Notes: generated by a model not told the origin, from the sequence alone. Positions 3,140-57,434 are shown, counted from the stretch's first letter. The stretch: 61,943 nt of DNA from a virus (IMGVR_UViG_3300025120_000046:1-61943); one strand, 5' to 3'. A program made the numbers and translations.

Positions 3140-4036
3140 ATGAATTTAGGTTATGCTTGTATCAATACTGCTTTAAGTAGCAATGGAATAATGACAAATC
3201 GCACAATGCGTAGAAAAACATTCGATGCTAAAGGTATTGATTATGTGTCAGATTTATCTTTATTAAATGTTAAAGATTTAAAAACTATTATTCAATGGAA
3301 TAACGAGATGGGTATTAAATTATTTAGACTCTCTTCTCAAATATTTCCATGGTCCGATGAATATAATATTAAAGATCTTAAAGATTATAAAGAAATTTGT
3401 GATTTAATGTTAGAAATTGGAACCATTGCAAAGGATGCAGGCCAGCGTCTTACAATGCATCCAGGTCCATATAATTGTTTAGCTTCACCTACAAAAAAGG
3501 TTGTTGAAAAAACTATTAGGGAACTTAATTTCCATAGCCTACAATTTGATATGATGGGGTATGAACCTTCTCCATATAATAAAATTAATATCCATGTTGG
3601 AGGCGCATATAACGACAAAGAATCTACATTAATACGTTTCTGTGATAATTTTGAATTATTGGATACTAACACTAAAAAACGGCTAGTAATCGAAAATGAT
3701 GATAGCCCAAATGAATATTCTGTTAAAGATTTATTGAATGGTGTCCATTTAAAAATTGGTATACCTATTACATTTGATTATTTTCACCATAAATTTAATA
3801 CTGGTGGTTTAACTGAAGAAGAAGCATTGATTGTAGCATCTTCTACTTGGCCTGATGGTATTGCTCAATGTTGCCATTATTCTGAAAGTAGAAGGAAAGA
3901 ACAATTAGATGAATCAATTAGACCACAAGCACACTCAGATATTATCTACGAAAAAATTCAAACTTATGGGTTAGAGCCAGATATTGTAATTGAAGCTAAA
4001 TTAAAAGAACAAGCAATATTCAAAAGAGTTATTTAA
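3140..4036 (+). CDS. uvsE: UV DNA damage endonuclease UvsE/UvdE
   Basis: LGYACIN, FRLSS, RLTMHPG, NIHVGG, IENDD, FDYFHH, AHSD, IEAKLKE motifs. Confidence 0.93.
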   Translation: MNLGYACINTALSSNGIMTNRTMRRKTFDAKGIDYVSDLSLLNVKDLKTIIQWNNEMGIKLFRLSSQIFPWSDEYNIKDLKDYKEICDLMLEIGTIAKDAGQRLTMHPGPYNCLASPTKKVVEKTIRELNFHSLQFDMMGYEPSPYNKINIHVGGAYNDKESTLIRFCDNFELLDTNTKKRLVIENDDSPNEYSVKDLLNGVHLKIGIPITFDYFHHKFNTGGLTEEEALIVASSTWPDGIAQCCHYSESRRKEQLDESIRPQAHSDIIYEKIQTYGLEPDIVIEAKLKEQAIFKRVI

Positions 4037-15819: not shown

Positions 15820-18800
15820 ATGAAATATAATGAGTCTTTAAGAAAAGAAAAAAGCAGAAAAGAGAAAGAAATTGAACTAGGTTATTCTCCTATAATGGTA
15901 ACCACATCTTCAATTGAACTATCTAATCCAGTTCAACAACTGGAAGTATCAGATGTTACTAATAATAATGAAAATATTATTCCTGTTAGTGCTTCTTGTA
16001 CACCCGTTAATCCTAGTACTTTATCAAGTGATGGTTTTGAATTACAAGACCAAGAAATAATACCGAGTGAAAATATTACAGGTTCATTTACACCAGGAAA
16101 AAATCTAGTAGAATTTTTTGTATATGATGCTGATAAAAATTTATCAAGTGTTAATTATAATTTTACAAATTGGACCACAGGTAAAGAACCAGGTAATGAA
16201 TTACTATCAGGATCAGTTGAAGAACCTCCAACATCATCTATAACAAATGCTATTTCATTAGACCCAGCATTAAATGCTTATAATTTAGGATTTGACACAG
16301 GGCAAGTATTTACATCATATAATTTTGTAAATTATGAATTAGGGTCAAGTATTGAAGAAACGTTTTATATATCTGAAATATCCGGAGATAGAACAGAAAT
16401 AGCTATTAAATCTAATTTTATATCTTCTTCTGTTGCACTTTCAGGATATCTATCTTTAAAAAATCAACTAGAAACAGCAACTAATTTTGATGAGTTCTAT
16501 ATTAGTTTATTTAATAATGATTATCAAATAGCTATTAATATAGATATTATTTCTGAAGATACTGACGATCCTACTATCTTAATTAAATTATATGATGCTT
16601 TACCACCCCAATTTAGTACAAAAGATGAACTATATGTTGTAACTAAAGTAGGTGAAAGTGTAGCTTATAAAATTAATTTTGTTGAAGATGTACAATTATT
16701 TATTGATAATGCTAATTATATTAAAGGGCCTAATATTAATATTTCATTACAAGATTTAGTTAATAACTCAACAACATTAAAATCAAGAGAAGATTTATTA
16801 AATACTAATGCAACATCTTCTTTAAATAATGTTTTAAATATTTTAAATCAAAAAGGTGTAGCAATTACTCCTAATTATTCATATAACACCTATAGTGAAT
16901 TTGTTAATTTTTCATCAGCAAAAGAAAGAGTTAATAATTTTTACGAAAAAGTATCTCAAATCCAAGCATATGAAGCTGATATAACTTCAATACAAACAAC
17001 AGTAGCAAGTAATCCAGGAGTATCAGCAATATCCCAAAGTTTAGCTAGTTTGCAAACTAATATAACTAATCTAATTGAAAATTTTGATGGATATGAAACT
17101 TATTTATATTATAATACTTCTTCTTTATATGCTTACCCTAAAAATACAGGTTCAGGCACGTCTTATCCTTATGATTTATTATCTACAAGTTCAGCTGAAG
17201 TATTAACATGGTTAGGTAGTGATGTTGAAAATAATCAATATTATGGAGGAATAATTAATTCAGCATCTATATATGATGAAAATAACCAAAATTGGTTATA
17301 TTATACTATACCTCAATACATTATAGATAACTCAGATAATGTAAATTATCTAACATTTGCTAATATGGTAGGCCAATCCTTTGATGAAGTTTGGATTTAT
17401 ACTAAAGCATTAAGTGAAAGATATAATACTACAAATGATCCTGATTCTGGTTTACCTTTAGATTTAGCTGCTGATGCTATTGAAGGTTTAGGATTTCAAA
17501 CTTTTGGTAATAATTATGATAATCAAGATAATTTTATAGGTTTAGCAGGTTATAATGATGGTGTTTATACCCCGCCAACTGGAAGTGAATTAATTACTAA
17601 ATATATAGCAGTTAATAGTGGTTCTATCATTAATTATTGGGACCCAGAATATTCATTTGCTGATTATGTTGAATCCGTTACTGAAGCAGCATTTCCTTAT
17701 GCTATTGATAAAGTAAGTAAAGAAATTTATAAACGTCTTTACCATAATATGGCTTACCTTACTAAAAAGAAAGGTACTATATCTGGCTTAAGACAATTAA
17801 TTAATATTTGGGGTATTCCTAATACTATACTTCGAATTAATGAGTTTGGAGGTAAAAATAGAGATAACAGTAATGATTATGATTTATGGTATAATAGATT
17901 TAGTTATGCTTATACACCTGTAGCAACACAATATTTAGCAAGTTCCTCTATTTTAGTACCATGGCAACCTTTATATAGAAATTATTTAACTGACATAAAT
18001 GAAGCAGGAGATAATGAATTTATAGTACCAGATGGTGTAGGTGTTAGATTTAAAACTACAGGTTTCCCATCTTCTAGTTATGCTGGTACTTTTTATAGTC
18101 AATCAATTTTAGCTAAAAAATCTAATACTACTAAAAATAGTGCTGTTGATTGGGCTATATCACTACAATATGATAATCAACCATCAGGTTCATATAGTGG
18201 ATCTAGTTTTAGTGATTATTATGAATATGGAAATTTATCGTTCTTTTTATCAGGTTCTGAAAGTGAAGGTGGTACAATCCAATCAGAAAAAATATACTTA
18301 CCTTTCTTTAATAGAGGGTGGTGGACAGTTTTATTACAGAGAGATACCCATGCTTCAGCTAGTAATAATTCTGCGGATGTAACATATACTCTATACGCAG
18401 CTAATAATCAATATAATGGAGCGGATGGTAATACTATAGGGTGGACAGGATCAGTAAGTGTAAGTCTTAATACTCCAGGAGCTTCACAATCATTAAATGA
18501 ATCTTGGAATAAATTCTCTACAGGAGTAAATGATGGTGTTTATATAGGTGGTTATGTATCAGGATCAAATGTAGGTGTTGTAAAAAGTGGATCTGGGGGT
18601 ACAAATGGATTCCAAGCAATAACTAATGGTGCTGGTAAAATATTTTCTGGATCATTTCAAGAATTTAGATATTATTCTCATGCAATTGGTGAAGAGGTAT
18701 TTTATGATTTTGTAATGAACCCTGAATCAGTTGAGGGTAATTCAATTACAGGATCACAATCATCATTTGATATAGTTAATTTTAGAGCACCTTTAGGGAA

Positions 18801-21800
18801 TGAATTAGAGCAATTATATACATCCTCAGGAAGTAATTATTATGTAACAGAAATATCTTCATCACACCCAGCAGTAACAGGATCAGCACCATCTGTAATA
18901 ACGGCTTCATTTATAAACCCAGCAGATTTTTCATTAACATCTAGTTATGATTGGATAGTATATGATAATACAAGTACTAGAACTTATAGTAAACCTAATT
19001 ATGAGGTTTATCAATTAGATCAACCAGCAATAGGAATTAGAAATAGGGTATCAAATAAAATACAGGATGAAAGTGGAGATGCTTATGGGAATGTTTTATC
19101 AACCCAAATAAGTATAGATCAAAACTATTTAATAAGTCAAAGTTACACTGAAGACACAAATAATTTAGAAGTAGGATTTTCACCTCAAGATGAGGTAAAT
19201 GATGATATTATAGCTACATATGGTTATGGAGTAATTTCTGATGCTATTGCAGATCCAAGATTTGTAACATCATCAGATTCATATTATCCAAAATTAAGAG
19301 AAACAGCAGAAGATTATTTCAAAAAATATACTGAAGGTAATGTTTGGGATTATTTAAGATTAATAAAATATTTTGATAATTCATTATTCAAAGCAATTAA
19401 ATCATATGTACCTGCTCGTACTAGTGTAACTACAGGTGTTATAATTAAACAACATATGTTGGAGCGTAATCGTCGCCCAGCTATACAAATAACGCCTAAT
19501 ACTACAATAGCTTTTAGTACTAGTGGTTCATTTGTTACTCAATCTACAGACACAGGAGCTACATATGGATTTGGTTTATATGGAGTAGCTAATTATGGTA
19601 CTGAAGGAGAAATTGCAAGGTGGGGTGCTAATACTTTAAATGTACATAATGTGTTCCAAAATTTAGAATTAAATGCTAATATACCTTTAGGCTCTTACTC
19701 AGGAACTATTCAAACATTTACAGGAGGACATGCATTTAAATCTCCACCAGTAGATTTTACACATTTTACTTCAAGTGGTGCGGTTTCAATTACGGGTTCA
19801 ACATCTTTAATTCCTTTATCAAATTCAGGATCTTTTTTCTATAGTTCTTCAGTAGCTACAGAACCTTCTACTGAATTAGATTTATTTAATTTTATACAAG
19901 CTGGATTCCAAATGACTGGCTCTGCAACTAGAATTACAATGGATCTTAATAATACTTACATTCAATCACCTAATGATGCTGAAGAATACAATCCAGGTTC
20001 TTGTTTTATAGAAACAACAAAACACATAAAATCTAAAGTCCAATGGAATCTTAGCAGAGTAGCAGATGGGAGTGATCCAGCATTAAAATTTCAAATAACT
20101 TCAAGTGAAAGAGGTGTAATATTTAATAGAACATTAACAACAGTGGGTAATGTTTCTACAATTGAGTATACATCTTCATATATGGAATTTTTCCCTGGGG
20201 AGCAATTGTATTTTAATTTTATTGGGGGTGATCAAGGCCAAGTTTATACAAATACATTCCTTAGATTTGGTGATTTAAAGGATGAAAATTCAGGGAGTAT
20301 AGGTAAATTTATAGGAGATTCTGTTTCACAACAAGGATATTTTGAAAAAAATGAAACAATATCAGGTAGTGTATTAGAATGGAATGGAACTCAAGAACAA
20401 CTTTATAATGGAGAATATAGTGGTAGTGTAATAACAGCAACTACCCAATCATTATTAAATAATCCATTTGCACTTGCCCCACCACCAGATACAACTTACC
20501 ACTTAATAATAGATCAAGACAATGGATTAGCAGATCCAATCTCAACTACTGAACTGTTTGGGATGAGGATGTTAATATTTGAATATGACTCAGCTCAATC
20601 AGCAATGGAACAAATTGAAACGGATTTTGCTCCTTATTTAAGTACAGAGTATACAGGAGCAATAGCTATTAAACAAGCAGACTTAACAGGAGTAAATCAT
20701 TTTATATATGCTATGGTAATGCCTATGAGGGTAATTAGAAATCCTTCATCTCCATCAAGTGCAGATTTAGCATTAGTAAATGGAGAATTTAGATCAGATT
20801 TATCAGTGCCCTTTCCAAATATCTCTCCAGATGAAAATATGGCGTATTCAACTTGGACTCAACCAGTTTATGATACTGCTACTAATACATTCGAATATGG
20901 TTTTAACCAAATTAACCCACTTATAAAATGGTCTCAAATGCCTGTTACAACAGGTGGTTGGGAGTTTCTCGATACAGGGTTATTAGGAAATTTAAATTCA
21001 GGTATACTTCACTCAGGGTATTTTGGAAGAACTCGTATTGTGGAAAGATATTTTGGTAGTCCTTCAGGTCTAAAAACTAATCCTCCTGCAGGAACAGAAA
21101 AATTTGTAATGTATAAATTTCCGGGTGCAGAATCTAATAAAGGTAGACCAATAAGATTAGCTGAAGTAGGTACTGGAACAGCACCAGGAAATGCAGGTAC
21201 TCCTACTAGTTTTAGAAATCTTGTTAGTAATGGTACGGGGACTGAAAAAGGAGTTGCATTAACATTTAATTATAGTAAATTTGCTACTAAACAACAAAAC
21301 TTCTTAAATACAATTGCAACTGCATCTTATGGACCAGGAACAGGTAGTTTATTTTTATTGGGAACATCTTTTACATCATCTTATTTCCATGATATTGGAA
21401 ATTGGGTACCATCAGCATTAGTATTTAATAAAAATAGTATAGATTCTCAAGGAAATCTTATTAATAATGAAAGTACATTGTTAAATGAAAATGTTGATTT
21501 TGCATTTAATTTAAATGTTAGTCAAAGTGGTAGACCATTTTTAGATAGTACAAATGTTTTGGGAAGTAGATTTGTACAAAGTTTAAATCAATTAAATGGT
21601 GTAATATCATCTAATGATAATTCAATGATTGGTTATTCATATGTTGCAAATTCAATGGGTGTGAATGGTACTAGAGTATTAAGTGGGTCAGCAGCTGGAT
21701 ATGTTTCAACTGCTGTAAGTTCTATGAATTTAGATGACGATGGTGGTGGATTCTCAGTAGGACAAACTTACACAACAATAAATAATAATACAGGAGTAGA

Positions 21801-23730
21801 TTCAGGTATTGTAATTAGAGTAGATACAGTTGTTGGATCCGGTGGTATTGCTACATTTACTATAATAGATGGAGGTAGTGGAAATACTAATGGAGATGAA
21901 ATTGAAACTAACAAAGGTAGTAATGAGGCTATGTTTTTAGTTACAGGAATAGCAACAGCCCAAAATGGTATATATTCATCTTCATTTGCTAATTCACAAT
22001 TTATATCATTTAATCCTACAGCACCAGATGAAACTAGTTTTTATAATACAGCATTTAATCCATTAATTAATAATGCATCTTCAAGTGTTAAAAACACTTA
22101 CATTATGAAGGTTGAATATGATGATGGTGAAGCAATACCATCAAATATTTTACCTATTATTAGTAGAACAGCTGAGAAAGCTCAAATACCAGATAGTAAT
22201 TATACTACAACTAGAATAATTAACCCTAGATATGTAGGTAGTAGATTACAAAGTGCTGATTACAATAATTATACTCCTGCAACATCAAGTATTACATTTT
22301 TAAATGCATTAAGTGGAAGTGCAGAATCACAATCAGCTTGGAATGGGGATGATAGCTATGCTAATCAAGCAGTAATTAATAAAAACCCAATTTATTTTGC
22401 CCATTTCAAATCATCATTTAATAATTTAAATCTTCCTGGAACTTATACATTTGAAATTGATTCATTAATTTTATCACCTTCATCAAGTGTTCAAGGTGAA
22501 AAAGCACCACAAACACCAGTAGTAATTAAAGTAGATGGTAGTGGAAACGCACTAACTGAAGTTAGAAGTACATTTGAAGTAGATAGAAAAGTAGCAGTAA
22601 CATACGATTCTTTAAAATTTGCTAGTGTAAATTATGCTAAATTAAAAACTGGGGATAATGTTATATTTCAAGGAGCTTTAGAAATGTTAACAGTGGGAGC
22701 TTCAACAACAGGAGAAGAAGGACCTATAGATCAATTTAGATACCCAACATTTACACCAACTATGTCGTTTAATTCATCAAGTTGGGTTGATGGAGGAGGT
22801 TCAGCAACTAATTATACTGAAGTATCTGCATCTTTAAAAGTTTTTGGTATTAATACAAATGATGGGTATTTAGCGACAGGGAGTAAATGTTTATTTTTAA
22901 GAGGATCTGGTGGTTTTATGTCAGCACCATTTAGAAATGATGGAAATGGTGTTCAATATGTAAGTGGTCCTGGATTAGCTATAATAAATAGTATGAATCA
23001 TTGTGTAAGCCAATCTCTTACTGGATCCATAGTTGTTCAAGAATCTGAAAATAGAATTATACCAGGAATTCCTCAGTCATTGTCTCAATCATTTTCAGAA
23101 AACCCAGGTTTAAATGAAAAGGGTATTTATTATTGGAGTCAAAACTTTACAGGTAGTAATTTAGGTGGTTATCGTGCCTCAGAAGGAGCTATACCATTTT
23201 TAATAAAAAAGAATGATGAAATAGAATGTACTTTTGTAAATAATACACAACTAGCAGCAACAGATGGAAAAAATTATGAAACAGTAACATTTATTGTGAC
23301 ATCCATAAGTGGGTCAGTCCCAGGTGATTCCGAAGGTCCACCTACGGCACCTGTAGAAGGAGAATTTTCTGGTTCATATTGCAACTCTACGGTATGTTTT
23401 CAAGCTAAACCTATGGCAACAGCAGCAGGTGTTACTAACATTAGAAATAAAATTAATGTATACCCAGACCCATCAACCTATAATATAGTTGGGGGATTAA
23501 TAGGTTCATTTACAATTAGAAGAAGAGTAAATGCTGATGATAGGGTAATTGTTTATCAAACCGCACCTATAAATACTGGAATAGGTGAAACAACAGGATC
23601 AGGTGGTGGGTTCTTAATACCAAATGACTTTTCACCTCAACAAAAAAGAAATGCTTTAACATTAATTAACCAACTAAAACAGAAAAATGCATTTAGGGAT
23701 GATTCAGAATTACCAGATCCAGTTAAATAA
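15820..23730 (+). CDS. Giant baseplate/tail structural protein (gp7-like wedge initiator with accessory domains)
   Basis: 2636 aa; YLTKKKGTISGLRQLINIWG (gp7/P2 gpI-like KG(T/S) motif), LamG-like segment (FSGSFQEFRYY), GGIATFTIIDGGSG repeat unit. Confidence 0.65.
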   Translation: MKYNESLRKEKSRKEKEIELGYSPIMVTTSSIELSNPVQQLEVSDVTNNNENIIPVSASCTPVNPSTLSSDGFELQDQEIIPSENITGSFTPGKNLVEFFVYDADKNLSSVNYNFTNWTTGKEPGNELLSGSVEEPPTSSITNAISLDPALNAYNLGFDTGQVFTSYNFVNYELGSSIEETFYISEISGDRTEIAIKSNFISSSVALSGYLSLKNQLETATNFDEFYISLFNNDYQIAINIDIISEDTDDPTILIKLYDALPPQFSTKDELYVVTKVGESVAYKINFVEDVQLFIDNANYIKGPNINISLQDLVNNSTTLKSREDLLNTNATSSLNNVLNILNQKGVAITPNYSYNTYSEFVNFSSAKERVNNFYEKVSQIQAYEADITSIQTTVASNPGVSAISQSLASLQTNITNLIENFDGYETYLYYNTSSLYAYPKNTGSGTSYPYDLLSTSSAEVLTWLGSDVENNQYYGGIINSASIYDENNQNWLYYTIPQYIIDNSDNVNYLTFANMVGQSFDEVWIYTKALSERYNTTNDPDSGLPLDLAADAIEGLGFQTFGNNYDNQDNFIGLAGYNDGVYTPPTGSELITKYIAVNSGSIINYWDPEYSFADYVESVTEAAFPYAIDKVSKEIYKRLYHNMAYLTKKKGTISGLRQLINIWGIPNTILRINEFGGKNRDNSNDYDLWYNRFSYAYTPVATQYLASSSILVPWQPLYRNYLTDINEAGDNEFIVPDGVGVRFKTTGFPSSSYAGTFYSQSILAKKSNTTKNSAVDWAISLQYDNQPSGSYSGSSFSDYYEYGNLSFFLSGSESEGGTIQSEKIYLPFFNRGWWTVLLQRDTHASASNNSADVTYTLYAANNQYNGADGNTIGWTGSVSVSLNTPGASQSLNESWNKFSTGVNDGVYIGGYVSGSNVGVVKSGSGGTNGFQAITNGAGKIFSGSFQEFRYYSHAIGEEVFYDFVMNPESVEGNSITGSQSSFDIVNFRAPLGNELEQLYTSSGSNYYVTEISSSHPAVTGSAPSVITASFINPADFSLTSSYDWIVYDNTSTRTYSKPNYEVYQLDQPAIGIRNRVSNKIQDESGDAYGNVLSTQISIDQNYLISQSYTEDTNNLEVGFSPQDEVNDDIIATYGYGVISDAIADPRFVTSSDSYYPKLRETAEDYFKKYTEGNVWDYLRLIKYFDNSLFKAIKSYVPARTSVTTGVIIKQHMLERNRRPAIQITPNTTIAFSTSGSFVTQSTDTGATYGFGLYGVANYGTEGEIARWGANTLNVHNVFQNLELNANIPLGSYSGTIQTFTGGHAFKSPPVDFTHFTSSGAVSITGSTSLIPLSNSGSFFYSSSVATEPSTELDLFNFIQAGFQMTGSATRITMDLNNTYIQSPNDAEEYNPGSCFIETTKHIKSKVQWNLSRVADGSDPALKFQITSSERGVIFNRTLTTVGNVSTIEYTSSYMEFFPGEQLYFNFIGGDQGQVYTNTFLRFGDLKDENSGSIGKFIGDSVSQQGYFEKNETISGSVLEWNGTQEQLYNGEYSGSVITATTQSLLNNPFALAPPPDTTYHLIIDQDNGLADPISTTELFGMRMLIFEYDSAQSAMEQIETDFAPYLSTEYTGAIAIKQADLTGVNHFIYAMVMPMRVIRNPSSPSSADLALVNGEFRSDLSVPFPNISPDENMAYSTWTQPVYDTATNTFEYGFNQINPLIKWSQMPVTTGGWEFLDTGLLGNLNSGILHSGYFGRTRIVERYFGSPSGLKTNPPAGTEKFVMYKFPGAESNKGRPIRLAEVGTGTAPGNAGTPTSFRNLVSNGTGTEKGVALTFNYSKFATKQQNFLNTIATASYGPGTGSLFLLGTSFTSSYFHDIGNWVPSALVFNKNSIDSQGNLINNESTLLNENVDFAFNLNVSQSGRPFLDSTNVLGSRFVQSLNQLNGVISSNDNSMIGYSYVANSMGVNGTRVLSGSAAGYVSTAVSSMNLDDDGGGFSVGQTYTTINNNTGVDSGIVIRVDTVVGSGGIATFTIIDGGSGNTNGDEIETNKGSNEAMFLVTGIATAQNGIYSSSFANSQFISFNPTAPDETSFYNTAFNPLINNASSSVKNTYIMKVEYDDGEAIPSNILPIISRTAEKAQIPDSNYTTTRIINPRYVGSRLQSADYNNYTPATSSITFLNALSGSAESQSAWNGDDSYANQAVINKNPIYFAHFKSSFNNLNLPGTYTFEIDSLILSPSSSVQGEKAPQTPVVIKVDGSGNALTEVRSTFEVDRKVAVTYDSLKFASVNYAKLKTGDNVIFQGALEMLTVGASTTGEEGPIDQFRYPTFTPTMSFNSSSWVDGGGSATNYTEVSASLKVFGINTNDGYLATGSKCLFLRGSGGFMSAPFRNDGNGVQYVSGPGLAIINSMNHCVSQSLTGSIVVQESENRIIPGIPQSLSQSFSENPGLNEKGIYYWSQNFTGSNLGGYRASEGAIPFLIKKNDEIECTFVNNTQLAATDGKNYETVTFIVTSISGSVPGDSEGPPTAPVEGEFSGSYCNSTVCFQAKPMATAAGVTNIRNKINVYPDPSTYNIVGGLIGSFTIRRRVNADDRVIVYQTAPINTGIGETTGSGGGFLIPNDFSPQQKRNALTLINQLKQKNAFRDDSELPDPVK

Positions 23731-28773: not shown

Positions 28774-29574
28774 ATGATATCATTAGTAACATTATTGAAA
28801 GAAGCAACTGAAACCCCAAAAGCAATTATATTAGCTGGGGCACCAGGTGCTGGTAAAGGATATATATTAAAAGGTTTAGATTTAGGTGGTTTAAAAGTAT
28901 TAAATATTGATAATATTTTTGTTAACATGCTTAAAAAAGCAAATGTATCTTTAGATTTAAAAAACGCAACACCAGAAGAAAGAAGCCAACAAGCTAAATC
29001 TATGGCAGCTGCAAATAAAGAATTTAAAGGAGATGTTGCAAGTGTAATTTTAAATAAAGAATCATTTATATTAGATGGTACGGCTGCATCATTAAGAAAT
29101 ACTCTTAAGCTAAAAGATGAATTAAAGGAAGCAGGGTATGAAGTATTTATGCTTTATGTTTATACTGATTTAGAACGTTCATTAAGACAAAATCAAAATA
29201 GATTTGAAAAATCAGGTGGTGAAGATAGAAGTTTAGCACCTGCAATTGTATTACGTACTTGGAAAAATGTAACTGATAATTTACCTGAATATGCTAATGC
29301 ATTTGGTGATAATTTTGTAGCAGTTGCTAATACTTTAGAAGGTCAAAAAATTGGAGATATAGAAAAAATAGTTCAAAAATACCTTAATCCATTCAAACCA
29401 GAAGGTACTAAACCTAAAACACCAGCTCAACAAAAAAAATCTGACGAACAAAAAGCAGAATTAAATGCTGAAATTCAAGATATGTTAAGTGATGAATTTT
29501 TATATGATGTAATTGAATACACTATGTCTAAAGAAGAAGCACAAATGAGATTAAAACAATTTTTAAATGGGTAA
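28774..29574 (+). CDS. Zeta-toxin-like / AAA_33 P-loop kinase, late-expressed
   Basis: ILAGAPGAGKG Walker A, FILDGT, SLRQNQNR; TATTTATA at 28750-28757; leader MISLVTLLKE. Confidence 0.75.
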   Translation: MISLVTLLKEATETPKAIILAGAPGAGKGYILKGLDLGGLKVLNIDNIFVNMLKKANVSLDLKNATPEERSQQAKSMAAANKEFKGDVASVILNKESFILDGTAASLRNTLKLKDELKEAGYEVFMLYVYTDLERSLRQNQNRFEKSGGEDRSLAPAIVLRTWKNVTDNLPEYANAFGDNFVAVANTLEGQKIGDIEKIVQKYLNPFKPEGTKPKTPAQQKKSDEQKAELNAEIQDMLSDEFLYDVIEYTMSKEEAQMRLKQFLNG

Positions 29575-38404: not shown

Positions 38405-39352
38405 ATGTGTAAAAAATGTGGATGTAATACGTGTGAAACTGAAAGTACAATGTTAGTACTTAATGAGAGCAAAGCTCCGGCGACTATATTGTCTGAAGGT
38501 TTAAAGCACCATATAGACACTAATAAACCGCTTACTGAGCATTTATATCGTGCTGGCTCACGTGCTTACTTTGATTTATTTGCAGAAGCAAGATCATTAT
38601 ATAGTAGAGGTATTTTAGAATTTACTCATGAAGATGATGTAGCTTTACTTACAGAAACTAACTTAGGTCATTTTGGCATGTTTGAAGGTAAAAAAGTGCC
38701 TTTAGATTTTCCTATTGAATTAAATGAGCAAATGGATCTTGAAGATGAGTTAGCAAATATGGAATTTGGAATGGATTATGATCAATTAGGTGATAATGAA
38801 AAAGAATGGGTTCGTGATGAAATGGACAATATGTCTATGAATGAAGTTACCCGTTATAGTGGTTTTAATAGAAACCCAGAAGATCCAGATTCAGAACCAT
38901 TTAATCCAGAAGGAGCAGTAGCTGAATTTAAAGAAGAGTTAAGAGCATTATTTGGTAAATTTAAAGGTGATTTAAAAAATCCTGAATTTATAAAAGGAGT
39001 AGCTCAAATAATGGTTAATTGGAAACCACTTTTAAGAAGTCAATTAGACGAAGCTAAAAAGGCTAAGAAAAAAGATAATAGACCAATAGGAAAACCAATG
39101 CGCTCATCATCAGGTGGAAAAGCATATAAAGTATATGTTAAGGATCCTAAAACTAAAAAAATTAAAACTGTCAGATTTGGATCTGGTGGTTTAAGAGCTA
39201 AAATAAATGACTCAAAAGCACGTGCTGCATTTGCAAAAAGGCACAAATGTTCAACTAAAAAAGATAGAACAAAAGCTGGATATTGGAGTTGTAGATTACC
39301 ACGTTATGCAAAATTACTCGGACTTAAATCAAGTTTCTCTGGATTCTGGTAA
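38405..39352 (+). CDS. Modular protein with C-terminal basic Cys/His domain common in T4-like phages
   Basis: KAYKVYVKDPKTKKIKTVRFG...AFAKRHKC...AGYWSC; N-terminal CKKCGCNTC. Confidence 0.65.
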   Translation: MCKKCGCNTCETESTMLVLNESKAPATILSEGLKHHIDTNKPLTEHLYRAGSRAYFDLFAEARSLYSRGILEFTHEDDVALLTETNLGHFGMFEGKKVPLDFPIELNEQMDLEDELANMEFGMDYDQLGDNEKEWVRDEMDNMSMNEVTRYSGFNRNPEDPDSEPFNPEGAVAEFKEELRALFGKFKGDLKNPEFIKGVAQIMVNWKPLLRSQLDEAKKAKKKDNRPIGKPMRSSSGGKAYKVYVKDPKTKKIKTVRFGSGGLRAKINDSKARAAFAKRHKCSTKKDRTKAGYWSCRLPRYAKLLGLKSSFSGFW

Positions 39353-39617
39353 ACCATATACAGATTTAGAAGTAACAGAAGATTATACTTTAAGACAATT
39401 TGATGAGTCAATTGACCCAATTGAATTACTATGGCATCGTGATGATGAAGATAGAGTAGTTGAAATTGTAGGAGACACAGATTGGATGTTACAGTTAGAT
39501 AATTCTCTGCCGACTTCACTTCAAGAGCGTATATTTATACCTAGACATAAATGGCATAGAGTCATTAAAGGAACTGGAATATTAAAATTAAAAATATATA
39601 AAAATGGAAAATTGTAA
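39306..39617 (+). CDS. Small cupin-like phage protein (start uncertain)
   Basis: ELLWHRDDEDR...WMLQLDN...FIPRHKWHRVIKG; nearest in-frame ATG is at 39306. Confidence 0.6.
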   Translation: MQNYSDLNQVSLDSGKPYTDLEVTEDYTLRQFDESIDPIELLWHRDDEDRVVEIVGDTDWMLQLDNSLPTSLQERIFIPRHKWHRVIKGTGILKLKIYKNGKL

Positions 39618-39672
39618 TTGTACGGCATGTGGGTGTAAAAAATCTTGTAGTTGTTCTTGTTGCGATTGTTAA
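39604..39672 (+). CDS. 22-aa Cys-rich metallothionein-like peptide (not in ORF track)
   Basis: MENCNCTACGCKKSCSCSCCDC, 9 Cys; A-rich leader; fills the gap before the next late promoter. Confidence 0.65.
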   Translation: MENCNCTACGCKKSCSCSCCDC

Positions 39673-39710
39673 AAACCATTATATTTATAAATAAAGAAAA
39701 AAATTAAATT

Positions 39711-40451
39711 ATGGCTAAACATTCATTTTTCGCAGGAGCAGCCGATGGAAATATAAACACAACAGCACTTGCTAATGCCGGATACAATTTATTTGGAAAG
39801 TATGACTCAACTGAAGGATCCGCAGGATACCAAGAAGTACCAAATGGTATAGGAGCAGTAATTAATACTCCTAATGTAACAACTATTGGATCCGCAAACA
39901 TACCCTTAAATAATGCAAAAGCAGGAACAGTAGTTGCAACAGGAAATAGTGGCGAATTAGCAACTGTCCAGGCCTCAAGTTTTATGGGAGGAGTTAACAA
40001 TGGTGAGGATTTAGGAGGTACTGGAAAAAGATACTATTACATAGGTTGTATAAACTATAACAACTATAATCTTGGCACAACTTCATCTGAAAATACAATT
40101 CCTGGAAATAATGTAGATGGAATGTATTCAGTTGATGAAGGTATAGCTCAATACACAACTGCTGGAGATGTTGGTGGGTCAGGAACAGATTACACAGTAT
40201 GTTTATTATCTAATAATAAAAATGGACAATCCGCTGCTGGTAGACAAGGAACAAGAATTACTTTTAGATTTGCAAATGGAGGTTTAGGTGCTGGTTTATC
40301 TGCTTTAGCTTATTATGTAAATGAAGAGGGAGATTATGGTTTACAAATTACTGCACTTATGAATGATGAAAACGCAGCCGGAAGATGGTTAGGAGCTGGG
40401 TATGGTATATTAAAAGGTGCACAACCTACTTTTTGGGATGGTGCTAATTAA
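39711..40451 (+). CDS. Gly/Asn/Thr-rich late (virion) protein
   Basis: TATTTATA at 39682-39689; composition resembles fibre or decoration proteins. Confidence 0.55.
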   Translation: MAKHSFFAGAADGNINTTALANAGYNLFGKYDSTEGSAGYQEVPNGIGAVINTPNVTTIGSANIPLNNAKAGTVVATGNSGELATVQASSFMGGVNNGEDLGGTGKRYYYIGCINYNNYNLGTTSSENTIPGNNVDGMYSVDEGIAQYTTAGDVGGSGTDYTVCLLSNNKNGQSAAGRQGTRITFRFANGGLGAGLSALAYYVNEEGDYGLQITALMNDENAAGRWLGAGYGILKGAQPTFWDGAN

Positions 40452-40505
40452 AAACTTACAGCTCGATTCATAGCCGAGCGACTATATAAAATCAATTTTG
40501 AGATC

Positions 40506-40539
40506 TGTGGCCTTCTATTTGGAGGTCACATTTTTTTTT
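40506..40539 (+). terminator. Rho-independent terminator overlapping the next promoter
   Basis: TGTGGCCTTC-TATTT-GGAGGTCACA followed by T9. Confidence 0.75.
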
Positions 40540-40549
40540 CGTATATTAA
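40518..40549 (+). promoter_or_regulatory. Bacteroidota-type promoter
   Basis: TTTG-N20-TATATTAA. Confidence 0.6.
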
Positions 40550-40570: not shown

Positions 40571-41884
40571 ATGAATAATAAAATAGTAATGATAGGTGCA
40601 GGAGTAGCAAATGTAAATGCTGCTACTAAATTAATTGATGAAGGTTTCCAAGGTAAAATCACTATTATTGATATGGGTAAAGATCCGTATAGAAGACCAT
40701 ATGAAGAAGTAATGACTGGTTTTTTAGGGGCTGGTGGGTGGTCTGATGGTAAATTAACTTATCATACATCAATTGGGGGTCAATTAAGTAAATATTGTGG
40801 TGAAGAAAAAGCAATGGAGTTATTTGATCAAGTAATTGATAATTTTAAACGTTTTCACCCTAACCCATCAGAAGTGCAATGTTCGAACCCTATAGCGGAA
40901 CCAGAATTTATTAAACCATATTTTGGATTACGTTTATTTCCAGTATGGCACGTTGGTACTGATTATTTACATGAAATAGGTAAAAATTGGTATAATTTTT
41001 TAGCTGATAATGGTGTTGAATTTATATGGGAAACAAAAGTTACTTCAATTGATTTTGATAATAATGAATTATTTATAGGAGAAGAAGAATCTTTTTTAAA
41101 TCCAAAAAATTGGCCTATTTCATATGATACACTTATCTTTGGTGTAGGTAAATCAGGAATTGACTTTGGTAAACAATTAGCAGAACAATATGATTTGCCA
41201 ACTGAACCAAAACCAGTACAAATAGGTGTTAGATTTGAAGCACCACAAAAACACTTTCAAAAATTAATTGATGTAAGTTATGATTTCAAATTATATAGAA
41301 AATATGAAGACAAAGGAGTATCATTACGTTCTTTCTGTACAAACAACAATGCAGCATATGTTGCCGTTGAAGAAACGTATGGAGACCATAGCTACAATGG
41401 ACACGCTAAAAAAGATGAAGCATTCCGAAATGATATGACCAATTTTGGTATATTAATGGAAGTTCAAGGCATTGATAAACCATTTGATTGGTCTAGAGAA
41501 TTAGTAGGAAAAGTACAAAAAGAAAGTACTGGATTATTTTATAGTCCTACAAGAAAACCTACTACTACATCTGAAGGTATAGGTGTTAGTGCAGTTCAAA
41601 TTGATTCATTAGATGAAGTAAGAGAAGCATTTCAAGGATATTACACATACATTGATGATTTTATTGATGATATGAAGAAAGTATTTCCTACATTAGGAGA
41701 TGATTGGGGTGTGTATGTACCTGAAATTAAATATCTATCACCTGAACCTCTAGTTAATTATAATGATTTAAGTTTAACAAAATATCCTAATGTTCACTTT
41801 GTTGGTGATGCATTAAGTGCAAGAGGAATTACAGTATCTGGGGCACAAGGAACATTAGTAGCAGAACAAATAATAAAAAAATAA
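40571..41884 (+). CDS. FAD-dependent oxidoreductase (COG2509-like)
   Basis: IGAGVA, GFLGAGGWSDGKL, IGVRFE, RSFCTN, NGHA, FVGDALSARGITVSGAQG. Confidence 0.85.
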   Translation: MNNKIVMIGAGVANVNAATKLIDEGFQGKITIIDMGKDPYRRPYEEVMTGFLGAGGWSDGKLTYHTSIGGQLSKYCGEEKAMELFDQVIDNFKRFHPNPSEVQCSNPIAEPEFIKPYFGLRLFPVWHVGTDYLHEIGKNWYNFLADNGVEFIWETKVTSIDFDNNELFIGEEESFLNPKNWPISYDTLIFGVGKSGIDFGKQLAEQYDLPTEPKPVQIGVRFEAPQKHFQKLIDVSYDFKLYRKYEDKGVSLRSFCTNNNAAYVAVEETYGDHSYNGHAKKDEAFRNDMTNFGILMEVQGIDKPFDWSRELVGKVQKESTGLFYSPTRKPTTTSEGIGVSAVQIDSLDEVREAFQGYYTYIDDFIDDMKKVFPTLGDDWGVYVPEIKYLSPEPLVNYNDLSLTKYPNVHFVGDALSARGITVSGAQGTLVAEQIIKK

Positions 41885-42166: not shown

Positions 42167-42580
42167 ATGAGAGAGTCAACAATACAAGCTTTACCTTATA
42201 AAGGTGAGATTCATAAAAAAGCTTGGGGTCATGAGTTATGGATTATCAATAATGAAAAATATTGTGGTAAATTATTAGTATTTAAAGCTAATAAACAATT
42301 TTCAATGCATTATCATATGTTAAAAGATGAAGCATGGTATATTAATAAAGGAGAATTTGAATATAAATATATTGACACAGAAACTTCAGAATTAAGGTCT
42401 AAAATAGTTAGAGAAGGAGATTGTATTCATTTAATTCCAGGACAACCTCACCAAATGTTGGCTTTGCAAGAAGGAAGTTGTATATTCGAGGTATCAACAC
42501 AACACTTTGATAGTGATAGTTATAGGATTTTACCTGGGGCATCACAAGATGAAAATAATAATGAAGATTTACCATTTTAA
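42167..42580 (+). CDS. Cupin (sugar-phosphate isomerase-like)
   Basis: KAWGHE, YCGKLL, SMHYHMLKDEAWY, PGQPH, EVSTQHFDSDSYR. Confidence 0.8.
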   Translation: MRESTIQALPYKGEIHKKAWGHELWIINNEKYCGKLLVFKANKQFSMHYHMLKDEAWYINKGEFEYKYIDTETSELRSKIVREGDCIHLIPGQPHQMLALQEGSCIFEVSTQHFDSDSYRILPGASQDENNNEDLPF

Positions 42581-55785: not shown

Positions 55786-56700
55786 ATGAAAGAAACTCCC
55801 TCGCAGTTACCAATTCAAAGTTACGTAATGAATTTCCCACATACATTTTCAACAGATGATCCAAATAATGTTTGGATGAAGGAAATGTCCGATAAAGAAT
55901 TAGCAATAAATAGACCAAAGGCATATAAGCAGTTTATGGACTTGTATAACTTTATGGCTGGACAATCATTAGTACATTTATTACCTGCAGAAGGTAATTT
56001 CCAAGATTTAATTTATGTAGCAAATTTAGGATTACAATTACCACATATTTGTGATGAAAATCATATTTTATTATCAAATTATACTTCACCCCCAAGACAA
56101 GGAGAAGAATATGTAGGTGAAAAATTCTTTAAACAAATGGGTTATAATACTCACATATCACCTCATAAATGGGAAGGTGAAGCAGATATAAAATATTTAA
56201 AAGATAATGTTTATATAGGGGGATATGATATTCGTTCAGATATAAAAACATACCATTGGATGGAAGAAAACTTTAATATGAAAGTTATTAAAGTTAAAAT
56301 GGTTGATGAGTATATGTACCATTTAGATTGTAGTATATTCCCGTTAAATACGCGGTCAACTATGGTTTGTACTGAGTTATATGATAAAACCGAGTTAGCG
56401 CAAATTAGCAAATATACTAACATAATAGACATAGATGCAGAAGACTCAATGTATGGAATGGCTAATTCTGTTAGATTAGGTAATATGATTTTATGTGCTT
56501 CAAATATTTCTGAAATGAAAAAAGGAGATGAATTTTATGAAGGTGAAAAACATAAAATTGCTTCATTAGAAAAAATATGTTCTGATGAAGGGATGGAACC
56601 TGTAATTTTTAATCTATCAGAATATATGAAATCTGGAGCTATGTTAAGTTGTATGGTAATGCATTTAAACAGAGTTGATCATTTTAAATCACTTCTTTAA
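55786..56700 (+). CDS. Amidinotransferase/pentein superfamily enzyme (ArgZ-type arginine dihydrolase / DDAH-like)
   Basis: NNVWM, DLIYVANLG, WEGEAD, YHLDCS, EYMKSGAMLSC (catalytic Cys). Confidence 0.8.
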   Translation: MKETPSQLPIQSYVMNFPHTFSTDDPNNVWMKEMSDKELAINRPKAYKQFMDLYNFMAGQSLVHLLPAEGNFQDLIYVANLGLQLPHICDENHILLSNYTSPPRQGEEYVGEKFFKQMGYNTHISPHKWEGEADIKYLKDNVYIGGYDIRSDIKTYHWMEENFNMKVIKVKMVDEYMYHLDCSIFPLNTRSTMVCTELYDKTELAQISKYTNIIDIDAEDSMYGMANSVRLGNMILCASNISEMKKGDEFYEGEKHKIASLEKICSDEGMEPVIFNLSEYMKSGAMLSCMVMHLNRVDHFKSLL

Positions 56701-57434
56701 TGGCTGAGACTTTAAAAGATTGGTTAAATGGTGAAGTAAATAAATTATCTAAATTATCAGTAGGAGAATTAAGCAACACATTCTTTTTTAGAGATCCCTT
56801 AAGATCAACCCACATAGATTATAAACATTTTTATAGTCCAGCAGATGGAACTATTTTATATCAAAAATTAGTTCAACCTGGTGAACAAGTTTTAGAAATA
56901 AAAGGTATTGATTATACTATCCAAGATGTAATGGGTGATAGCGATTATAATAAACCTTCTTTAGTTATTGGAATATTTATGTCATTTTATGATGTACATA
57001 TTAATAGAATTCCTTATGGTGGTGTACTTAAGTATAAACGTTTGGAACCTATTGAATCTACAAACAAACCAATGTTAGCGGTAGAGAAGGATATTTTAAA
57101 TAAAGTAATCAATCCGAATAACATGGCGTACTTAAAGTACAATGAAAGGATGTCTAACCAAGTGTATGTTCCTTCTTTAGATTACACATATCATATAATA
57201 CAAATAGCAGATGAAGATGTAAATGTAATAGCCCCTTTTAAACAACAGGGGGATCTTTGTACACAAAACGAAAGATTCAGTTTGATTAGATGGGGGTCAC
57301 AAGTAGATTTAGTTCTACCTCTAGATTCTAGATATAAATTTGAGACCATTCTAGATGATACAATGCATGTAAATGCAGGTCTTGATAAATTAATCAAAAT
57401 TAAAGAAACGAATAATGACATCGAACCATCATAA
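56700..57434 (+). CDS. psd: Phosphatidylserine decarboxylase-family pyruvoyl proenzyme
   Basis: FFFRDP, YSPADG, FMSFYDVHINRIP, RWGSQVDL autocleavage site. Confidence 0.8.
   Translation: MAETLKDWLNGEVNKLSKLSVGELSNTFFFRDPLRSTHIDYKHFYSPADGTILYQKLVQPGEQVLEIKGIDYTIQDVMGDSDYNKPSLVIGIFMSFYDVHINRIPYGGVLKYKRLEPIESTNKPMLAVEKDILNKVINPNNMAYLKYNERMSNQVYVPSLDYTYHIIQIADEDVNVIAPFKQQGDLCTQNERFSLIRWGSQVDLVLPLDSRYKFETILDDTMHVNAGLDKLIKIKETNNDIEPS

Follow-up and report, generated by a model that had tools for sequence, protein, structure and literature searches.

A nine-cysteine, 22-codon microprotein gene carried by marine phages and by streamlined marine Flavobacteria, a candidate minimal metallothionein

The fungal Cu-thioneins, with 26 residues and seven cysteines, have long been held to be the shortest metallothioneins (PMC4755600), and the cluster of the metallothionein beta-domain is described as Zn3Cys9, with nine Cys ligands (PMC10243857). 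For bacteria, the account in PMC12193353 names SmtA/BmtA, PmtA and MymT, covers cyanobacteria, Pseudomonas, a few enterobacteria and Mycobacterium, gives SmtA/BmtA a dedicated metal sensor (SmtB), and does not name Bacteroidota among the carriers. No phage or Bacteroidota mini-metallothionein was found in the literature; a fumarole-virus preprint mentions metallothionein-type host-like genes in a single sentence (PMC13317609). Here we set beside these systems a 22-codon gene with nine Cys codons, located at 39604..39672 on the plus strand of a viral stretch of DNA (IMGVR_UViG_3300025120_000046:1-61943; hereafter the window, meaning the whole stretch of 61,943 bases that was analysed). An earlier reading of the DNA alone, the original prediction, had proposed this uncalled frame as a phage mini-metallothionein. 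We describe the gene and its relatives, hereafter the Cys9 family, in marine phages and marine Bacteroidota, and weigh what its product might do.

The 22-codon gene and its family

The gene runs from an ATG at 39604 to a TAA at 39670-39672 and encodes MENCNCTACGCKKSCSCSCCDC, a peptide of 22 amino acids with nine cysteines in CxC and CC spacing and zero aromatic residues, exactly as first proposed. Its family can be written as M-x(0-3)-CxCxxCxCxxxCxCxCCxC-stop. The ATG sits 14 nt within an upstream open reading frame (ORF, 39207-39617, stop at 39615-39617). The initiation region ahead of it (39590..39603, plus strand), read from the bases of the window, is A-rich and holds no Shine-Dalgarno sequence, with A at -1 to -4, -6, -8 and -10 to -14. 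The predicted overlap with the upstream stop and the predicted A-rich start context are therefore both seen. Across 194 family members, A precedes the ATG at a frequency of 88% at -3, 79% at -6 and 68-83% at -10 to -14, falling to about 42-45% at -7 to -9. In Flavobacterium johnsoniae the same upstream A positions are reported as positive determinants of initiation, in a phylum without Shine-Dalgarno sequences (PMC6847099), and the start context of the family is of this Bacteroidota type.

The window has a single match to the Cys-spacing pattern, and 100 dinucleotide-preserving shuffles have none. As a check on the frame, the original prediction had suggested looking at the syntenic position of related phages for conserved cysteines accompanied by synonymous changes. 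We built such a set without any use of the Cys pattern, from relatives of the protein encoded upstream (a putative mini-cupin, described below); these were confirmed in 175 stretches, and 80 loci were retained for the analysis. Because 79 of these retain at least 90 nt downstream of the mini-cupin gene, the counts of peptide presence use those 79. A 22-codon ORF with the same nine cysteines lies directly 3' of the mini-cupin homologue in 20 of the 79 loci, representing 12 distinct nucleotide versions, and in one more locus the peptide is found 863 nt further downstream. All nine cysteines are retained throughout this set, and most of the remaining positions are variable. TGT and TGC both occur at every one of the nine Cys sites (TGT in 89-122 and TGC in 18-51 of 140 unique sequences), and the ratio of nonsynonymous to synonymous polymorphism (pN/pS) is 0.28 overall and 0.72 over the non-Cys columns. 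The suggested check thus came out in favour of the frame. A chance reading frame is ruled out by the shuffle test, the conserved cysteines in relatives and the codon usage, and we regard ORF 39604-39672 as almost certainly a genuine translated gene. One contig from a marine RNA library (X1 record 4, depth 4.4) spans 39607-39732. This is weak evidence, since DNA can be present in such libraries and carry-over is possible; the bin that holds the peptide is mostly thinly covered across four RNA-library runs, and the contigs give no transcript start, strand or level.

A first scan of IMG/VR with a loose Cys pattern, in which a stop codon was not required, returned at least 120 rows. Among the matches listed, most were poly-Cys frames of simple repeats, many of them from giant-virus bins, and 15 were further true members of the family, all 15 of which stop immediately after the last Cys. 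A tightened pattern was found in at least 120 marine viral contigs of IMG/VR, and the same pattern was scanned over 185,579 prokaryote species, represented by one genome each. Pooling the viral and genome scans gave at least 129 distinct peptides, and the counts that follow for these 129 refer to the matches listed. Thirteen are 20 residues long, 85 have 21, 26 have 22 and three have 23; two longer forms have 30 and 36 residues, the latter (L224:2004-2111, minus strand) with an additional Cys-rich stretch ahead of the core. In 127 of the 129, 0-3 residues precede the first Cys and none follows the last. Aromatic residues and His are each confined to a single peptide. Non-Cys positions are almost exclusively N, K, D, S, T, G, E or Q, Cys makes up 42% of the composition, and an alignment of 103 members has nine invariant Cys columns. 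A different Cys-rich peptide was noticed in L020 (4004-4093), about 600 nt from the cupin gene, with 29 residues and eight cysteines in CxC pairs.

That the gene had gone uncalled was correctly foreseen, and the whole family escapes gene finders and protein databases. Not one Pfam or NCBIfam model matches the peptide even at E<=10, and none of the 10 exact peptides tested is present in a collection of about 15 billion predicted proteins. A phmmer search of the peptide against the PDB gave no match, short and biased sequences being hard for such tools, and the sole PDB match of the family profile, wheat Ec-1 metallothionein (2kak), is non-significant at E 5.7. For the 36-residue form, the only named cluster among its nearest in the ESM Atlas is Metallothio_5 (score 0.80), which is a lead only. 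Among cultured phages (INPHARED), tblastn and blastn returned nothing or chance-level matches of 27 nt, although the low-complexity filter of BLAST may hide true ones. The likenesses to metallothioneins in the Atlas and the PDB are resemblance and not homology, and the same applies to the likeness of CKKSC.SCC to animal metallothioneins, to which the original prediction had drawn attention.

Copies in marine Bacteroidota

The scan of 185,579 species genomes gave 38 matches, of which 37 are marine Bacteroidota metagenome-assembled genomes (MAGs) or single-cell genomes from Flavobacteriaceae, Cryomorphaceae and Cytophagales/Marinoscillum; the 38th belongs to an archaeon and is a longer and different Cys-rich peptide. 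In the archaeal MAG of locus L342, a peptide of 33 residues and 13 cysteines lies between a class-V aminotransferase (cysteine-desulfurase-like) gene and a DUF1858 gene. One match recorded as bacterial (L346) has phage-like surroundings and a peptide almost identical to a viral one, and may be a binned phage contig. Several host matches are on contigs of 0.3-1.1 Mb, and all five host genomes checked, of 1.2-1.6 Mb, hold one copy apiece. Within one genus of streamlined Flavobacteria, exactly one copy occurs in 22 of 34 genomes, many of them incomplete, with zero matches for a reversed-pattern control. The peptide gene is thus near-core in one genus of marine Flavobacteria with genomes of 1.2-1.6 Mb. 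In a family-level sample of 201 genomes, only the starting genome (G001) matched, so that within those searched the gene is not a general trait of that family.

Among host forms the usual sequence is MDCNC..., the fourth Cys being followed by T, N, D or Q; among phage forms it is MKC[ND]C..., and the residue at that place is mostly G. The idea of a phage-specific mini-metallothionein is not borne out: because the host version is near-core in a genus of marine Flavobacteria, the product is better called a host-like microprotein carried by phages. The phage copy is thus a host-like gene, comparable to auxiliary metabolic genes.

The surroundings of the host copies differ between lineages. In one lineage the gene order is fixed on both sides, with a glutamine-synthetase-like gene, a Na/Ca-exchanger family gene on the opposite strand, a tRNA and a gene of 119-122 aa, unknown in function, that ends 31-38 nt upstream of the peptide; downstream of the peptide come 290-420 nt that are non-coding and close with a hairpin, then a lipoprotein gene and, on the opposite strand, pirin. 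Neighbours in other host lineages include beta-lactamase-fold, FMN reductase, dienelactone hydrolase, PhoD and GNAT genes. An Rfam search on six host loci returned only a tRNA, and no riboswitch or leader.

Two further features of the host loci were observed. A conserved AAAGTTATTAACAATTT box lies 35-45 nt past the peptide stop in L326, L327, L330, L332, L334, L337, L338, L340, L341, L353, L358 and others, its core, GTTATTAAC, being near-palindromic; a TAAATTTG-type motif that resembles the Bacteroidota -7 promoter element comes next. Past this motif come 250-350 nt free of ORFs, with a strong hairpin at the end and no Rfam match, and the region may represent a small RNA that annotation has missed, or else a long 5' leader. 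In addition, two host lineages have a 79-aa lipoprotein after or before the peptide (L339:2085-2324 and L349:220-459), whose Cys pattern looks by eye like a Kazal-type protease-inhibitor domain; family searches with it gave no match.

A metal-thiolate reading, its rivals and the phage neighbourhood

We lean, with modest confidence, towards reading the product of 39604-39672 as a minimal metallothionein-like peptide that would form a metal-thiolate cluster with Zn/Cd or Cu(I), because nothing in it is constrained other than nine thiols, set at fixed spacing amid small polar residues, and because the rival readings are weakened by the evidence given below. The metallothionein-like composition and Cys motifs asserted by the original prediction hold up in every sequence-level comparison made here: low molecular weight (20-23 residues in 127 of the 129 peptides), conserved CxC, CC and CxxC motifs, and scarcity of aromatic residues and His. 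Links to metal-enzyme folds also occur, through an in-frame fusion with the cupin (L007/L220) and through a glyoxalase/VOC-fold gene that begins right at the peptide stop (L325, L333 and L348). According to this reading, the apo-peptide would probably be unstructured and cytoplasmic, and its nine thiolates (four CxC pairs plus CC-x-C) would fold around a cluster that could be M(II)3Cys9, as in the metallothionein beta-domain, or Cu(I)4-8, as in the fungal Cu-thioneins. Its role would then be to buffer Zn or Cu, to store the metal or to pass it on. The family is a single-copy chromosomal gene in streamlined marine Flavobacteria, the likely hosts, and the T4-like, Immutovirus-related phage carries a copy of its own, which overlaps the mini-cupin gene, is probably translationally coupled to it and lies where a transcription unit ends.

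Several observations weigh against this reading. Searches of Pfam, NCBIfam and the PDB gave no significant sequence similarity to any metallothionein family, and the 36-residue form had no relatives at E<=0.001 among 1.84 billion representatives. Other bacterial metallothioneins are usually accompanied by metal sensor or transporter partners. Here, no metal transporter, sensor or metal-responsive operator stands beside the gene among 35 host neighbours and 63 window ORFs; a Na/Ca-exchanger family gene lies nearby, on the opposite strand, in one host lineage. To our knowledge, the Cys density (42%, nine Cys in 19 residues) is beyond that of any characterised metallothionein, and the geometry of the cluster is therefore conjectural. 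At 58 of the 79 mini-cupin loci the peptide is absent and other content is found instead, and in a cultured relative, Flavobacterium phage immuto, the mini-cupin is followed by other small ORFs with no Cys motif. Finally, the invariance of the cysteines in the pattern-found set is circular, because the pattern itself demanded them.

The window is an IMG/VR virus record, estimated to be 40% complete, with 30% G+C and its long ORFs all on one strand. It holds T4-type core genes (Gp23 capsid, Gp20 portal, T4-type terminase, gp25 baseplate wedge, prohead protease, PhoH and a SegE-like endonuclease). A Bacteroidota host is likely, since the capsid protein is nearest that of Flavobacterium phage vB_FspM_immuto (Immutovirus; 56% identity over 100% of the query).

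Immediately upstream of the peptide, the listed ORF starts at 39207 and has 136 aa, of which the last 85-93 residues are conserved. Its first 43 codons (39207-39335) share their DNA with the 3' end of the gene before it, and in relatives this part contains stop codons. As the conserved protein covers only those last 85-93 residues, the true start is probably the ATG at 39336, which gives a mini-cupin-like gene at 39336..39617 (plus strand) whose stop overlaps the peptide start by 14 nt. An alignment of 25 sequences has 33 invariant columns, including W-H-R-D and H-x-W-H-R motifs, and the invariant H34, D36, E38, H71 and H74 are candidate metal-site residues. No Pfam match was obtained for this protein. 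Its AlphaFold2 model has a mean predicted local distance difference test score (pLDDT) of 71.8, and the 15 best Foldseek matches in the PDB are all of cupin fold, although weak (E 0.03-0.1, TM about 0.48), which makes a cupin assignment plausible at the level of the model. The preceding gene (38405..39352, plus strand) encodes a 315-aa protein that begins MCKKCGCNTC, its N-terminal Cys4 motif being CxxCGCxxC here and CxCGCxxC in most relatives. The motif is retained by 51 of 58 homologue rows, and towards its C-terminus the protein matches phrog_7595, of unknown function. Of the two neighbours that the original prediction had named, the Cys4 protein is thus present as described, and the putative metal-binding cupin has cupins, at weak scores, as its best fold matches.

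These two genes are where the first rival reading finds its evidence, namely that the peptide is a metal-cluster adaptor, a rigid knot folded by Zn in the manner of binuclear zinc-cluster modules, that binds or controls a partner such as the mini-cupin or a host enzyme. We consider such an adaptor, which would amount to a phage takeover or chaperone device, unlikely. The 14-nt overlap with the cupin gene is found in the window and in close relatives, a second conserved Cys4 motif stands on the preceding 315-aa protein, and in L007 the cupin frame runs naturally in frame into the peptide. However, this fusion (L007/L220) is confined to a single contig, where the peptide retains its own ATG; the 58 of 79 cupin loci without the peptide mean that any cupin partnership is optional, and host copies have other neighbours.

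In close relatives without the Cys9 peptide (L002, L003, L005, L006, L008 and L020), the same slot after the mini-cupin, with the same overlapping ATG, holds a hydrophobic 24-aa peptide with three cysteines, and in L021 it holds a 28-aa peptide with six. The slot appears to be a hot spot of micro-ORF replacement.

Downstream of the peptide, a promoter-like palindrome TATTTATAAATA, containing a T4-late-type TATAAATA, occupies 39682..39693 (plus strand), 10 nt past the peptide stop and 18 nt before the ATG at 39711, in agreement with the earlier claim that the peptide ends just ahead of the next late promoter. The window has five exact copies of TATTTATAAATA, each shortly 5' of a gene start (32432, 34460, 39711, 46491 and 61417), and the motif is retained 3' of the peptide in L001, L004, L009 and L018. 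The next gene (39711..40451, plus strand; 246 aa, unknown function) separates the peptide from a flavoprotein gene here and in a few close relatives only (four related loci). The flavoprotein (40571..41884, plus strand) is a 437-aa FAD/NAD(P)-binding protein with a Pyr_redox_2 N-terminus of the pyridine-nucleotide-disulphide-oxidoreductase type, and it resembles an uncharacterised "FAD-dependent protein" group; searches of PDB sequences and NCBIfam returned nothing specific for it.

Neighbours were surveyed in 80 pattern-found viral loci, among the matches listed. In other phages the gene that most often follows the peptide, at a distance of about 115 nt, is a flavoprotein homologue (19 of the 80); a mini-cupin homologue lies upstream in 16, and two further, unrelated neighbours of unknown function are common to another 16 and 13 loci. 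Across phages and hosts the peptide has no fixed downstream gene. The adjacency of cupin and flavoprotein may be inherited gene order among phages, and the two links keep two ideas alive, that of a thiol/redox pair and that of metal delivery or control towards the cupin.

The first of these ideas is that of a thiol redox peptide, which would serve as a sacrificial or recyclable thiol buffer against oxidants or electrophiles or as the substrate of an FAD/NAD(P) protein in a peptide-reductase pair. The recurrence of the flavoprotein in 19 of 80 viral loci, its presence about 900 nt downstream in the window and the family of its N-terminus speak for such a pair, and metallothioneins are reported to scavenge oxidants as well (PMC10603854). 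Nevertheless, we hold it improbable: the translated flavoprotein has no CxxC or CxxxxC redox pair and resembles uncharacterised proteins; it lies about 115 nt off, and in the window the promoter-like motif and another gene intervene; host copies have no flavoprotein neighbour; the adjacency could be inherited phage synteny; and a simple thiol buffer needs no strict nine-Cys spacing.

The same two neighbours, flavoprotein and cupin, recur often enough in phages (19 and 16 of 80) to suggest an enzyme that processes the cysteines of a leaderless precursor similar to ribosomally synthesised and post-translationally modified peptides (RiPPs), with the C-terminal Cys as the modification site, and the peptide always terminates exactly at a Cys. 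Yet the 0-3 residues that precede the first Cys in 127 of 129 peptides leave no leader for enzyme recognition, with nothing after the last Cys either. No radical-SAM, YcaO, lanthipeptide (LanM/LanD) or MNIO-type enzyme is found among the 35 host neighbours or the 63 window ORFs. Host neighbours differ by lineage, and there is no exporter or protease. We therefore think a RiPP-like precursor very unlikely. The RiPP-like or disulfide-rich alternative that the original prediction had kept in reserve is weakened as a whole, there being no leader, signal peptide or maturase in this material.

A very short ORF rich in one amino acid could also be a regulatory leader, in which Cys codons sense the supply of Cys-tRNA and control a downstream gene through attenuation or translational coupling, and the 290-420 nt of non-coding DNA with a strong hairpin before the lipoprotein gene of one host lineage would suit such a role. 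In the window, however, the peptide gene closes its unit and the promoter-like motif comes after it, and in L010 the next gene starts 8 nt past the peptide stop, which leaves no room for an attenuator. Downstream genes are varied (flavoprotein, unknowns, PhoD, GNAT, glyoxalase, lipoproteins), leader peptides show neither a precise spacing of residues nor a precise end, and Rfam found no element on the six host loci, so that a regulatory leader seems to us scarcely credible. A secreted disulfide peptide is rejected, as there is no signal sequence and the number of cysteines is odd.

Other observations concern the wider window. A conserved two-hairpin element at 40459-40540, after the 246-aa gene, consists of a stem-loop around GATTCATAGCC and a G+C-rich hairpin with a T-run, which is terminator-like; it lies directly after the mini-cupin in L025, L027, L029, L030, L032, L037, L043, L045, L049 and L052, and may be a mobile or conserved terminator or RNA module. 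A 137-aa cupin at 42167-42580, one of a series of genes that also includes the flavoprotein, an FkbM-type methyltransferase and a nucleotide kinase, is labelled "cysteine dioxygenase" in PHROGs (phrog_7851, E 2e-38). This label is not borne out, as Pfam and NCBIfam give only generic or WbuC-like cupin models, and for that reason we draw no link to cysteine metabolism. A single ORF of 2,636 aa (15820-23730) among the baseplate and tail genes has no Pfam or PHROG match. Other host-like genes of the phage include a phosphatidylserine decarboxylase (56700-57434), a Zeta-toxin-family kinase domain (28774-29574) and a UvdE UV-endonuclease (3140-4036).

Implications and comparison with known metallothioneins

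The interest of the Cys9 family lies in its small size, its strict conservation, the extremely reduced genomes of its hosts and the number of marine phages that carry it. The gene is near-core in a Flavobacteria genus with genomes of 1.2-1.6 Mb and occurs in well over a hundred marine phage contigs, which points to strong selection for its function in bacteria that abound in the ocean and in the viruses of those bacteria. If the peptide binds metal, the minimum size of a metallothionein falls below the 26 residues of the fungal Cu-thioneins, metallothioneins extend to Bacteroidota and phages, and a 20-22-mer that can be chemically synthesised becomes available for the study of metal-thiolate clusters. 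If it does not, a nine-Cys peptide of fixed spacing common to phage and host would be even stranger. The boldest version, which we offer as a speculation and regard as doubtful, is that this is the smallest gene-encoded metallothionein (a 19-residue Cys9 core), the first of Bacteroidota and the first to be widely phage-borne, and that T4-like flavophages use it, co-translated with a mini-cupin beside a Cys4-tagged protein, to seize or deliver Zn or Cu in streamlined ocean Flavobacteria. Were this phage metal capture true, trace-metal handling would be a process at which viruses of the surface ocean aim host-like genes.

By sequence, the Cys9 family cannot be placed in any described metallothionein family; three groups come closest. 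With SmtA/BmtA, PmtA and MymT it shares being a small, Cys-rich, cytoplasmic bacterial protein, its metal binding being predicted only. Those proteins have about 50-56 residues, and SmtA/BmtA uses His together with Cys around a zinc-finger-like fold. Unlike SmtA/BmtA, the Cys9 peptides have no His (one in 129 listed), no nearby sensor and under half the length, and they occur in Bacteroidota. The beta-domain of vertebrate and crustacean metallothioneins (M3Cys9) likewise has nine cysteines mostly in CxC, with Lys, Ser, Asn, Asp and Thr between them, but it is some 30 residues long and makes up one of the two domains of its protein, whereas the Cys9 peptide, which no Pfam metallothionein model matches, packs its nine cysteines into 19 residues and stands alone. 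Although no homology is detectable, the Cu-thioneins of Neurospora crassa and Agaricus bisporus (metallothionein family 8) are also very short, gene-encoded, cytoplasmic and free of aromatic residues, with runs of CxC; unlike them, the Cys9 family has 20-23 residues and nine cysteines, including a CC pair, and belongs to bacteria and phages.

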